This document shows, in pieces, positions 11,690-16,783 of a stretch of DNA of 64,000 nt (within the stretch, counting starts at the first letter, position 1; each line of letters begins with the position of its first letter). The notes beneath the pieces are model-generated. The model ran no database searches. It saw only the letters and a list, made by a program, of their open reading frames with translations, and had not been told where the DNA came from. This stretch comes from Octopus vulgaris (Eukaryota): the NCBI GenBank assembly GCA_951406725.2, contig OX597828.1:55180001-55244000 (forward strand). Direction: 5' to 3'. The position numbers and the translations under genes were made by a program.

Positions 11690-12560
11690 AAATGACTCTT
11701 GGGTCACCCAAAAGATTGTCACATTTTATTGCATGATGCACAGTTGTGCTGGCTGGCAGAAGGAACCGGCACCACAGTATGAAATCTTTTGATATATCAT
11801 TTTTATCCGCCAACTAAACTGCACACCTTTCCACAGATTGCACATGTTCTGTTGTCAACAATAGTTGTCCATAATTTACAAGGGGACGATACCCGTGGTT
11901 TCTTTGATGGCTGACCAGACCAGCACAACTCACGTATTTCCTCCTACAAATCACACATGTAACCATCAATACACCTTCATTTTTTAATGGTTCATTCTTT
12001 CTAAGCTTTCTCCTGATCTTCTCATGCTTCATTCTCTTTCTTTCAAACTCCGAGCAACCACTGTGCACTCTTTTCCTCCATCTATTTCGGTCTTGCGCTT
12101 CTCTCTCCCAATCAATATCTGAAATACCTGTTTGTGTCAAAGCAGTTTTAAGGCAGTCTTTGAACCTTAATTTGGGTTTATATGCTGGCTTTTTACGACC
12201 CTAAAGCTTGCCAAACAAAAGTTGCTTAGGAAGTCTTATCATTCATTCTCACCAGATATCCACCCCACATCAGACGATCTTGCACAATGATCGATTCTAC
12301 ACTTCTGCTACGACTTCTATCAAGTACCTCTACATCACCGATCGCCATTCTCCAGCTTATCCTAAGTATTTTCCGAAGACAAAGTTGATGGAATCGTTCT
12401 AAATGCTTGAAATGTTTACTATAAATAGTCCAAGTCTCACTTCCATAGAGTACTGATGGCAAAACACGTGTGTTATGAACCTTAACTTTAGTTTGGATAA
12501 ATATGCTATGGCGTGACCAGAGCCGGTTGTCAAGCCTACCAAACGCATCACTAGCTGTGT
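11690..12560 (-). mobile_element. RTE-clade LINE 3' portion, pseudogenised
   Basis: PSVLYGSETWT, LERFHQLCLRKILRISW, RLMWGGYLVRM, WEREAQDRNRWR, and C-terminal CVICRRKYVSCAGLVSH. Confidence 0.85.
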
Positions 12561-12602
12561 TGATTCTCTCTCTCTCTTTCTCTCTCTCTCTATATATATA
12601 TA

Positions 12603-12653
<51 letters not shown>

Positions 12654-13134
12654 TTAATTCATTAATAGCGAAACAATTGTCCCAAAATAATCTGTATTTT
12701 TGTTATTTTTTATTTGCCCTGTCCGTGTGAGCTAACAGTCGTACCGGCTTTCATGGGAAACATGTATTTTTCGTGGTTGAAACCTCTTGGATTAACTGGT
12801 GCTAGAGTGATCAATATAGTGAACACTCTCTTATATTTATTTTGTGAAAATATTATAATATGTTATAAAATATTATAATAATCCAGGTTTCTCGTAGCAC
12901 TAGGCCACTTGGTGTGGAATAAATATACTATTAAATTAGTATCTAATTCTCTCACCCTTATTAATTAATTATAATTATGCTGCATTTATTTCTAAATGCT
13001 GTATTTGTTTTCCGTGAGAGTTTGGCGCGCTGTTGGTTGGGGCATTTGAATTATAACGTCCGATGTAATCAATTGAACCGCACGCGTATTTATCGTTATG
13101 GTAAAATCTGGCGTGTGATTGAGTGGATTTCATC

Positions 13135-13228
13135 CAGATAGTCTTGGCTGAAGAGCTACAAATGGATTACTGTAAGTAATATTACATTTAATTCATTAAT
13201 AGCGAAACAATTGTCCCAAAATAATCTG
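13135..13228 (+). ncRNA. Type I hammerhead ribozyme, copy 1
   Basis: Stem I 5' CAGATAGTCTTGG, core CTGAAGA (13148-13154), stem II GCTA...TAGC with an extended hairpin, GAAA (13204-13207), stem III CAATTG, TC (predicted cleavage after C13215, GUC triplet), stem I 3' CCAAAATAATCTG. Confidence 0.85.
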
Positions 13229-13668
13229 TATTTTTGTTATTTTTTATTTGCCCTGTCCGTGTGAGCTAACAGTCGTACCGGCTTTCATGGGAAACATGTA
13301 TTTTTCGTGGTTGAAACCTCTTGGATTAACTGGTGCTAGAGTGATCAATATAGTGAACACTCTCTTATATTTATTTTGTGAAAATATTATAATATGTTAT
13401 AAAATATTATAATAATCCAGGTTTCTCGTAGCACTAGGCCACTTGGTGTGGAATAAATATACTATTAAATTAGTATCTAATTCTCTCACCCTTATTAATT
13501 AATTATAATTATGCTGCATTTATTTCTAAATGCTGTATTTGTTTTCCGTGAGAGTTTGGCGCGCTGTTGGTTGGGGCATTTGAATTATAACGTCCGATGT
13601 AATCAATTGAACCGCACGCGTATTTATCGTTATGGTAAAATCTGGCGTGTGATTGAGTGGATTTCATC

Positions 13669-13762
13669 CAGATAGTCTTGGCTGAAGAGCTACAAATGGA
13701 TTACTGTAAGTAATATTACATTTAATTCATTAATAGCGAAACAATTGTCCCAAAATAATCTG
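13669..13762 (+). ncRNA. Type I hammerhead ribozyme, copy 2
   Basis: Same sequence as copy 1, offset +534. Confidence 0.85.
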
Positions 13763-14202
13763 TATTTTTGTTATTTTTTATTTGCCCTGTCCGTGTGAGC
13801 TAACAGTCGTACCGGCTTTCATGGGAAACATGTATTTTTCGTGGTTGAAACCTCTTGGATTAACTGGTGCTAGAGTGATCAATATAGTGAACACTCTCTT
13901 ATATTTATTTTGTGAAAATATTATAATATGTTATAAAATATTATAATAATCCAGGTTTCTCGTAGCACTAGGCCACTTGGTGTGGAATAAATATACTATT
14001 AAATTAGTATCTAATTCTCTCACCCTTATTAATTAATTATAATTATGCTGCATTTATTTCTAAATGCTGTATTTGTTTTCCGTGAGAGTTTGGCGCGCTG
14101 TTGGTTGGGGCATTTGAATTATAACGTCCGATGTAATCAATTGAACCGCACGCGTATTTATCGTTATGGTAAAATCTGGCGTGTGATTGAGTGGATTTCA
14201 TC

Positions 14203-14296
14203 CAGATAGTCTTGGCTGAAGAGCTACAAATGGATTACTGTAAGTAATATTACATTTAATTCATTAATAGCGAAACAATTGTCCCAAAATAATCTG
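14203..14296 (+). ncRNA. Type I hammerhead ribozyme, copy 3
   Basis: Same sequence as copy 1, offset +1068. Confidence 0.85.
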
Positions 14297-14736
14297 TATT
14301 TTTGTTATTTTTTATTTGCCCTGTCCGTGTGAGCTAACAGTCGTACCGGCTTTCATGGGAAACATGTATTTTTCGTGGTTGAAACCTCTTGGATTAACTG
14401 GTGCTAGAGTGATCAATATAGTGAACACTCTCTTATATTTATTTTGTGAAAATATTATAATATGTTATAAAATATTATAATAATCCAGGTTTCTCGTAGC
14501 ACTAGGCCACTTGGTGTGGAATAAATATACTATTAAATTAGTATCTAATTCTCTCACCCTTATTAATTAATTATAATTATGCTGCATTTATTTCTAAATG
14601 CTGTATTTGTTTTCCGTGAGAGTTTGGCGCGCTGTTGGTTGGGGCATTTGAATTATAACGTCCGATGTAATCAATTGAACCGCACGCGTATTTATCGTTA
14701 TGGTAAAATCTGGCGTGTGATTGAGTGGATTTCATC

Positions 14737-14830
14737 CAGATAGTCTTGGCTGAAGAGCTACAAATGGATTACTGTAAGTAATATTACATTTAATTCATTA
14801 ATAGCGAAACAATTGTCCCAAAATAATCTG
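14737..14830 (+). ncRNA. Type I hammerhead ribozyme, copy 4
   Basis: Same sequence as copy 1, offset +1602. Confidence 0.85.
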
Positions 14831-15270
14831 TATTTTTGTTATTTTTTATTTGCCCTGTCCGTGTGAGCTAACAGTCGTACCGGCTTTCATGGGAAACATG
14901 TATTTTTCGTGGTTGAAACCTCTTGGATTAACTGGTGCTAGAGTGATCAATATAGTGAACACTCTCTTATATTTATTTTGTGAAAATATTATAATATGTT
15001 ATAAAATATTATAATAATCCAGGTTTCTCGTAGCACTAGGCCACTTGGTGTGGAATAAATATACTATTAAATTAGTATCTAATTCTCTCACCCTTATTAA
15101 TTAATTATAATTATGCTGCATTTATTTCTAAATGCTGTATTTGTTTTCCGTGAGAGTTTGGCGCGCTGTTGGTTGGGGCATTTGAATTATAACGTCCGAT
15201 GTAATCAATTGAACCGCACGCGTATTTATCGTTATGGTAAAATCTGGCGTGTGATTGAGTGGATTTCATC

Positions 15271-15364
15271 CAGATAGTCTTGGCTGAAGAGCTACAAATG
15301 GATTACTGTAAGTAATATTACATTTAATTCATTAATAGCGAAACAATTGTCCCAAAATAATCTG
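15271..15364 (+). ncRNA. Type I hammerhead ribozyme, copy 5
   Basis: Same sequence as copy 1, offset +2136. Confidence 0.85.
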
Positions 15365-15804
15365 TATTTTTGTTATTTTTTATTTGCCCTGTCCGTGTGA
15401 GCTAACAGTCGTACCGGCTTTCATGGGAAACATGTATTTTTCGTGGTTGAAACCTCTTGGATTAACTGGTGCTAGAGTGATCAATATAGTGAACACTCTC
15501 TTATATTTATTTTGTGAAAATATTATAATATGTTATAAAATATTATAATAATCCAGGTTTCTCGTAGCACTAGGCCACTTGGTGTGGAATAAATATACTA
15601 TTAAATTAGTATCTAATTCTCTCACCCTTATTAATTAATTATAATTATGCTGCATTTATTTCTAAATGCTGTATTTGTTTTCCGTGAGAGTTTGGCGCGC
15701 TGTTGGTTGGGGCATTTGAATTATAACGTCCGATGTAATCAATTGAACCGCACGCGTATTTATCGTTATGGTAAAATCTGGCGTGTGATTGAGTGGATTT
15801 CATC

Positions 15805-15898
15805 CAGATAGTCTTGGCTGAAGAGCTACAAATGGATTACTGTAAGTAATATTACATTTAATTCATTAATAGCGAAACAATTGTCCCAAAATAATCTG
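15805..15898 (+). ncRNA. Type I hammerhead ribozyme, copy 6
   Basis: Same sequence as copy 1, offset +2670. Confidence 0.85.
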
Positions 15899-16048
15899 TA
15901 TTTTTGTTATTTTTTATTTGCCCTGTCCGTGTGAGCTAACAGTCGTACCGGCTTTCATGGGAAACATGTATTTTTCGTGGTTGAAACCTCTTGGATTAAC
16001 TGGTGCTAGAGTGATCAATATAGTGAACACTCTCTTATATTTATTTTG

Positions 16049-16100
<52 letters not shown>

Positions 16101-16783
16101 ATGTATGTATGTATGTATACACACACACGCGCAGAGAGAGGGGGAGAAAGAGAGATATCCCTTTATGGCAAAATTTAGTATGTAATTATGCAAGATGGAC
16201 CAATAACGATTTCATGAGTTTGAAATATACATTTAATATCTCTCAATTAACAGATTACAGTAGGAATGAGAGATAAAGTGAGAGAGACAGAGACAGAGTG
16301 AGAGGGATAGAGAATATATGTGTGTGTATTCGTATATATATATATGTATGTATATACATGCTCATACACACACATATATGTACACACACACGCACACACA
16401 TATATGAAGACTGAAAGAGAGACCTGCAGACAGACAGAGAAGAGGAGGGAGGGGTAGTTTACTTGCGTAAGTTTATGAAGGGAAGAAGCTCATGGAAGGA
16501 GCGGATGTTGTCAGAATTTATGTTCACTGGAGCTAGAAATGAATTTTGCTTAATGTGTAGCAGCAGTCTGTCGCAGGTTTCCGTGTTGTTATGGATATCG
16601 TTACCCTTAAAATACCTTTTTATGAAGAAAACGTAAGGGAAGCGTTAGGTCAGAATGCTTTCTAAAGCCAACTTATTTTTTCCCTTGGTTTTAGAGAAAA
16701 AAAAAAAGCCAAACCTGATGATCTTCCAGAAAGCTCCAAGTATTGCTGGGGAGCAGAGGAATTAAGGAACCAGAAATGATTTA

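Follow-up and report, generated by a model that had tools for sequence, protein, structure and literature searches.

A young hammerhead-ribozyme repeat of Octopus vulgaris, probably copied into (TA)n tracts from an RNA circle by a Penelope-like enzyme

Animal retrozymes that lack long terminal repeats (non-LTR retrozymes) are non-coding tandem repeats of low guanine–cytosine (GC) content, with one type I hammerhead in each strongly self-paired unit; they occur in thousands of copies with Penelope-like elements alongside, and mobilisation through a circular template has been proposed for them (PMC7229834; bioRxiv 10.64898/2026.07.22.740005), with Penelope elements doing the copying in PMC7229834. 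A Penelope origin is backed by phylogeny in the preprint, which also discusses array growth by unequal crossover. Penelope elements of the Hydra and Neptune types prefer (TA)n, carry a hammerhead with a palindromic loop 3 upstream of their termini and insert with a head-to-head, 5'-truncated inverted copy and a one-sided tail (PMC8557442). In vitro, the protein of the Anolis element Poseidon, a predicted dimer, makes nicks in the two strands of an AT-rich target and extends both, and two internal start sites of reverse transcription delimit the tail (PMC11167929). In the available portions of these papers two questions stand open: by which route animal retrozymes return to DNA (circle or linear multimer, and with which enzyme), and what causes head-to-head Penelope insertions with a tail on one side. 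Here we describe a 534-bp repeat found in a 64,000-nucleotide (nt) stretch of Octopus vulgaris DNA (contig OX597828.1, positions 55,180,001 to 55,244,000, forward strand; hereafter the window), together with the dispersed family to which it belongs.

Judged from its sequence and that of its relatives, the array in the window is one of hundreds of recent, dispersed insertions of a non-coding repeat. We put at roughly 70% the probability that this young hammerhead repeat was copied into (TA)n by a Penelope-like enzyme, with a 534-nt RNA circle as the template of rolling-circle reverse transcription. The 534-bp unit is a new family of a kind already known. We found no paper on this family, on a cephalopod retrozyme, on retrozyme twin priming or on the pairing rule for termini described below, and repeat libraries or supplements may hold the unit.

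The first-pass annotation of the window had reported identical head-to-tail units without an open reading frame inside (TA)n, and this stands: 2867 of 2867 positions match at a lag of 534 over 12649–16049, the identity ends exactly there, the longest stop-to-stop frame within the array is 69 amino acids (aa), and (TA)n borders it on the left and right. When the unit is numbered from the first base after the predicted cleavage site (phase 1, for example 13216), the array (locus L070) consists of 6.37 units at 100% identity, running from phase 502 to phase 164. Both ends thus lie mid-unit, as had been noted, and the right end is at the same time one of two termini fixed in the family, hence non-random. 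CTGAAGA recurs in six copies at 13148 + n × 534, all on the plus strand (no dedicated minus-strand descriptor search was made), and GAAACAATTGTC ends at 12681, 13215, 13749, 14283, 14817, 15351 and 15885, the last six being the cleavage positions that had been predicted. An autonomous RNA of viroid-like kind would carry ribozymes in both polarities and replicate from RNA to RNA. GC content of a single unit is 33%, below the 45% criterion for retrozymes. Tandem Repeats Finder, with its period limit of 500, is blind to the array. The features of the locus are as follows.

12649..16049, plus strand: single-arm retrozyme insertion of 6.37 identical 534-bp units, by lag-534 identity, phase 502 to 164
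12649..12681, plus strand: 5'-truncated start (phase 502) with a hammerhead 3' half lacking CUGAAGA; 5' ends are uniform in the family
13141..13222, plus strand: type I hammerhead motif 1, predicted cleavage after 13215 (GUC)
13675..13756, plus strand: hammerhead motif 2, predicted cleavage after 13749
14209..14290, plus strand: hammerhead motif 3, predicted cleavage after 14283
14743..14824, plus strand: hammerhead motif 4, predicted cleavage after 14817
15277..15358, plus strand: hammerhead motif 5, predicted cleavage after 15351
15811..15892, plus strand: hammerhead motif 6, predicted cleavage after 15885
13216..13749, plus strand: cleavage-to-cleavage monomer of 534 nt, the predicted circle, strongly self-paired
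16029..16049, plus strand: terminus A (phase ~158–167), 3' end of the window copy and putative start of reverse transcription
13485..13507, plus strand: terminus B motif (phase ~279–297), present in every unit; a 3' end in other copies, not in this one
12591..12650, no strand: left part of the (TA)n target
16050..16119, no strand: right part of the (TA)n target; a target-site duplication is unreadable within the microsatellite

The motif of a full unit reads UUGG-CUGAAGA-stem II-GAAAC-AAUU-GUC-CCAA. A canonical hammerhead had been claimed for each unit; six complete type I motifs bear this out, while the left end holds a 3' half only, stem III has just 2 bp around the palindrome ACAAUUGU, and stem II is an extended 18-bp hairpin, with 49 nt between CUGAAGA and GAAA. 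A short stem III with a palindromic loop is also found in the satellite hammerheads of newt and axolotl (PMC4209133, PMC7229834), and hammerheads of this build are described as acting as dimers (PMC4209133); the palindrome here is predicted to form a self-duplex at -7.8 kcal/mol. Forcing the hammerhead onto the monomer gives -13.7 kcal/mol, compared with -16.0 kcal/mol unforced, a cost of 2.3 kcal/mol. The Rfam check that had been suggested gave no match in the window at the gathering score and none of relevance for the unit even at E ≤ 10; the hammerheads of two further loci (L153 and L261) were likewise unmatched.

Conservation of the fold was assessed on 16 variants picked for diversity from at least three subfamilies (14 of 17 first picks, three badly delimited ones having been dropped, plus three of an older subfamily, less locus L049). 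In this alignment 94.7% of cells are paired, compared with 29–48% in slid controls, and double changes occur in 4 of 27 hammerhead pairs, three of them among the seven pairs of stem I. Percent paired and the covariation score both exceed the shuffle control. Core position N7 is A, C, G or U, and the remaining core is nearly constant among these diverse variants. On these alignments the hammerhead stem I covaries across subfamilies. The whole unit has a minimum free energy of -157.7 kcal/mol (z -7.8 on the plus strand, -6.7 on the minus strand), and in a circular consensus fold of 14 units, 10 of 133 pairs are compensatory.

The family is dispersed in the assembly (2.8 Gb, 227 contigs). A search with the unit gave 279 matches from 40 of the 786 candidates scored; the 21-nt hammerhead 3' motif has 2,492 exact genome copies (control 0) and the hammerhead 5' half 1,752 (controls 0). 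An older subfamily, about 75% identical, has units of ~503 bp and short arms, mostly of 1–1.5 units, in the set found with a short query copy. The 534-bp unit is present in 20 sequencing runs (of 24), which come from 8 studies under three organism labels, none recorded as RNA. Contigs of three runs guessed to be RNA (X2, X5, X12) and of one guessed to be DNA (X3) cover the unit and span the predicted cleavage site, a pattern by which circle, uncleaved RNA and DNA are not separable; in a DNA-labelled run one contig joins opposite strands of the unit. The ratio of summed depth (means of bins) of the unit to a Hydra-type terminal repeat was ~100:1 in X5, 10:1 in X6, 0.5:1 in X17 and 4:1 in the DNA run X9; being inconsistent and no valid gauge of level, it was not used.

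Tandem non-coding units, consecutive hammerhead motifs, low GC, self-pairing, dispersal and the lack of long terminal repeats make this, with high confidence on sequence grounds, a family of non-LTR retrozymes. The retrozyme reading of the first-pass annotation is thus upheld by a dispersed young family, a covarying hammerhead and hallmarks of Penelope insertion. The unit had been thought to be at or above the size of described animal retrozymes: it exceeds the ~170–400 nt of PMC7229834, including the 350–390 nt of mussel retrozymes, and falls inside the 51–972 bp range of the preprint (bioRxiv 10.64898/2026.07.22.740005). Its extended stem II also sets it apart from the described retrozymes.

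The evidence on how the copies were made comes from the anatomy of 53 mapped loci (the 40 best-scoring and 13 multi-copy ones from the list for contig C1). Of their 90 arms, 42 end at the 3' side at terminus A (phase 158–167), 46 at terminus B (phase 279–297) and 2 elsewhere, whereas the 5' ends of these arms are spread uniformly along the unit (Kolmogorov–Smirnov p=0.50). The suggested genome search for arrays with differing start and end phases is answered in part: the arrays are dispersed and their 5' phases vary, and their 3' ends fall at two fixed phases. Head-to-head inversions, all divergent, are present in 37 of the 53 loci; 36 of these combine A with B, one combines B with another end, and none has A with A or B with B. 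If arms chose their ends independently, the probability of this bias would be 1.5e-11. A further 20 loci gave the same picture (28 of 31 ends at A or B; eight A with B, three B with another end, none alike), and the ~75%-identical subfamily shares both 3' termini. In 51 of 53 loci an end has (TA)4 no more than 25 nt away, and target duplications of 14–16 bp are readable in L038, L040, L057, L062 and L210. Inverted 5'-truncated arm, one-sided tail, (TA)n target and target duplication are together the features of a Penelope-type insertion.

Arms exceed one unit in 73 of 90 cases, with a maximum of 12.8, and both arms do so in 20 of the 37 inverted loci; arm lengths decay smoothly, with a mean of 1.6 kb. 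At the inversion junctions, overlaps of 1–6 nt occur at 21 of 37, and near-identical phases (within 20 nt) are joined at 6 of 37, an excess that is not significant (p=0.06). A run-off peak at the cleavage site is absent, with five of the 90 5' ends in phases 1–15 (p=0.11). This anatomy, as read from the sequences, favours arrays made at insertion. Two loci show breaks within an arm that may be template jumps: L058 has two segments both ending at phase 356, separated by a 30-nt spacer, and L048 has a short repeat of phases 138–122.

We propose the following course of events. A read-through transcript would self-cleave, likely as a double hammerhead, and the cleaved monomer would be ligated into a 534-nt circle. 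A Penelope reverse transcriptase (RT)-endonuclease, probably a dimer, would bind the circle and nick both strands of a TA-rich target ~14–16 bp apart. Each nicked 3' end would prime at one site, A ~160 or B ~290 nt past the cleavage site, each RT would circle its template until dropping off, and the two complementary DNAs (cDNAs) would be joined at random far ends. The window copy would be a case in which the A-primed arm alone is detectable. That one RNA circle is copied simultaneously from two fixed starts by an RT-endonuclease dimer, for many rounds, and that this is the general origin of the Penelope structure of head-to-head copies plus tail, is in our estimate slightly favoured. Rolling-circle copying had been put forward on the non-integer copy number; the present support, though indirect, is better, and the two fixed 3' termini and the inversions had been missed.

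The family differs from the described systems in several respects. Fixed 3' termini, inversions joining A to B and a haplotype particular to each insertion are seen here and are not described for retrozymes in the available portions of PMC7229834 and bioRxiv 10.64898/2026.07.22.740005. Unlike the Penelope elements of PMC8557442, with which it shares the insertion pattern, the retrozyme has no open reading frame and both its arms are multimers of the whole unit; with A and B ~130 nt apart, its tail is longer than the 30–40 nt given there. Poseidon has a linear template, start sites close together and no strand preference between them, and needs no cleavage in vitro (PMC11167929).

The family invites a further comparison, with L1 elements. 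In L1 twin priming both nicks prime cDNA, and the inverted 5' part is joined at short microhomologies. Here, by contrast, the second start is a fixed site and not a chance match, the first arm passes it, and the arms can be many units long. The family offers hundreds of young insertions and countable predictions (two starts, one per strand, one template molecule); its 534-nt substrate is defined and the genome itself encodes intact candidate enzymes, so the model can be tested with the in vitro assay already published. RNA-templated insertion is a further ground for interest in a small non-coding circle that may be written processively into (TA)n by an RT.

Mobilisation by a Penelope-like element is very probable from these insertion features, and the genome holds several candidate helpers. 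A Neptune-type family has a 781-aa frame with RT and GIY-YIG domains in many copies ~99% alike (L131–L147, for example L142); its termini are 35 nt apart, and both of the inverted copies seen have a different terminus on each arm. Its terminal repeat contains a hammerhead-like motif with a UUGAUAA core instead of CUGANGA and several UUGAUGA repeats upstream. At least three families (841 aa, 899 aa and a third) are assigned to the Hydra type on motifs inspected by eye; their hammerheads are canonical and lie upstream of two termini spaced 85, 157 and ~200 nt apart. The Hydra-type families other than the 841-aa one (~900 aa, L244–L256) have hammerheads with a long stem II and tails of 157 to ~200 nt, far above the 30–40 nt given for Penelope tails. 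Autonomous elements of both types thus share the two-ended, (TA)n-targeted pattern of the retrozyme.

The 841-aa family was represented by open frames at L193:2251-9089 (C8:63567800-63577700) and L261 (C4:127708000-127717900). Its unit of ~6.8 kb includes an insert rich in N and a long non-coding stretch rich in GT, and its many copies are 94–98% alike. Members of the Hydra clade are described as smaller than 3 kb, with RWK, DKT, a CxCX5C linker, CxxC and CxH, a canonical hammerhead and (TA)n targets (PMC8557442). The 841-aa frame shows DKT, CTCRDKSNC, CYLC and CRH, with RIKWK replacing RWK, as read by eye; Pfam gave no match for it. Its stem III palindrome is identical to that of the retrozyme. 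Because of the long tail and the canonical core we lean slightly to a Hydra-clade helper over a Neptune one, at about even odds on sequence features.

The nature of the template was examined through the variants carried by individual units, with fixation scored at sites covered by at least three units. Fixed in all units of a locus are 183 shared substitutions and 29 sample-private ones, where private means private among the 53 loci, 40 of them the best-scoring; they stand against 79 singletons and 20 intermediate cases. Among the sample-private fixed variants, 12 of 29 span both arms, in seven loci, and 10 of 29 come from one older locus. Arms were also compared in register in the 32 inverted loci that gave two clean segments, five others being dropped: 37.7 units overlap, with 23 differences between the arms and a single non-fixed change common to both, a test that is weaker if the 23 differences are assembly errors or mutations after insertion. 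Arms longer than one unit predominate, which excludes a cleaved linear monomer as template. Template jumps from one unligated end to another were rejected as an explanation, with no excess of errors at the cleavage junction (6 of 281 units, compared with 0–9 in 20 control windows). The sequences point to circular RNA as the probable template of insertion.

The sole shared non-fixed change, in L049, is a 3-nt substitution that abolishes the GUC at the cleavage site and is absent elsewhere in the assembly. The mutant junction is second from the 3' end in both arms, and the longer arm reads wild-mutant-wild. Such an alternation is just what a dimer circle with one uncleavable junction would give. 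The locus may preserve in the genome the trace of a dimer circle formed because one junction failed to cleave, and would then document cleavage and ligation by the hammerhead in vivo; as part of the joint reading with two starts and an enzyme dimer, we rate this a little above even. No further locus of period two was found: the other hits with a broken triplet, L263 and L264, are single-unit changes, and in the 20 further loci no variant is shared by two or more units.

Several observations weigh against the proposed course of events, in addition to the restricted sense of private and the sensitivity of the in-register test given above. L049 is one locus whose longer arm has three junctions only, and taken alone it is also fitted by a linear template with one mutant junction. 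Six loci carry partial variants that are not periodic (L040 GGGGAA, L054 CCGG, L060 CTTC, L069 AATTA, L202 TCCT and L205 in 4 of 13 units); to account for them, duplication or conversion at a later time or an error of assembly has to be invoked. The minimum-energy fold of the monomer lacks the full hammerhead, the count of double-change pairs lies within chance in shuffle control (a) (199/500), and of nine predicted Xenopus retrozyme dimers one cleaved in vitro (bioRxiv 10.64898/2026.07.22.740005). The anole element inserts without cleavage, from unprocessed RNA, and the lack of a strand difference between its two start sites does not predict a strict pairing of A with B (PMC11167929). Many Xenopus retrozyme families share homology with Penelope terminal repeats, whereas the 534-bp unit has no DNA homology to those of the one Neptune-type and three Hydra-type families fetched; the suggested check for an autonomous element sharing the unit found none in the loci fetched, and no RT or GIY-YIG open reading frame lies within or beside the arrays examined. 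An apparent CYCTWAT resemblance of termini failed a shuffle test (14 comparisons, lowest p 0.06), and the resemblance to the termini of the 841-aa element is not significant (p 0.06–0.31).

A rival reading keeps the element and the Penelope enzyme but takes as template a linear multimer that stays uncleaved after transcription from a homogeneous array in the genome, the hammerhead being a passenger or rarely active. Hammerhead mutants of the anole element have no effect on insertion in vitro (PMC11167929), stem III is weak, L049 could arise in this way, and non-periodic partial variants exist. We nevertheless regard such a template as unlikely. Fixation in every unit is seen for subfamily and rare variants alike and would need repeated one-unit bottlenecks; some 11 shared in-register singletons would be expected at 0.3 per unit (our own estimate), but the cleavage-dead junction is the only one observed. 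Each of the 32 inversion junctions tested is unique and hence was not inherited from a source array, and stem I covaries.

Unequal crossover, the standard satellite model, would have short insertions grow into arrays later (bioRxiv 10.64898/2026.07.22.740005), and in a few arrays (L040, L054, L069) neighbouring units do share variants. Arrays of up to 12.6 units are, however, 99.97% homogeneous and identical between chromosomes, arm lengths show the smooth decay given above, and the arms of the older subfamily are shorter rather than longer; we consider this origin highly improbable. Alternatively, the inverted arm might stem from a first cDNA that folded back and primed itself, or from an antisense template, as proposed for rotifer Penelopes, with ends trimmed by the endonuclease at A or B. 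Palindromic junctions are reported in PMC3846280, the tail is attributed to endonuclease resolution in PMC8557442, and the six junctions joining near-identical phases would agree. The other 31 of 37 junctions are not fold-backs, each arm of L049 carries sequence missing from the other, so that neither was copied from the other, no other non-fixed variants are common to both arms, and trimming alone leaves the absence of A with A and B with B unexplained, which makes this scarcely credible. Six perfectly identical units and the lack of an Rfam match could raise the suspicion of an assembly artefact, or of a simple satellite whose hammerhead-like motif arose by chance; this is already largely refuted by many dispersed loci with their own lengths, haplotypes and target duplications, by the hammerhead covariation, and by the occurrence of the unit across runs, studies and organism labels with a DNA-labelled contig joining opposite strands, so that its probability is negligible, although the exact copy number here may be affected.

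Some minor observations concern the surroundings and relatives of the family. Different hammerhead or Penelope families are nested in one another's (TA)n flanks at L143, L115–L117 and L127–L129, so (TA)n tracts act as shared landing sites. In the window, a frame on the minus strand at 12226–12603 is directly followed by the (TA)n target; it resembles the C-terminal part of a long interspersed nuclear element, RTE-like. Genome-wide, a hammerhead pattern with a CAAUUG stem III and a short stem II has 1,949 matches (control 12), belonging to several other families. Two further hammerhead motifs with a long stem II occur in L079 (~3056, oriented strand) and L150; near its ribozyme the latter locus weakly resembles the 534-bp unit, to which it may be distantly related.

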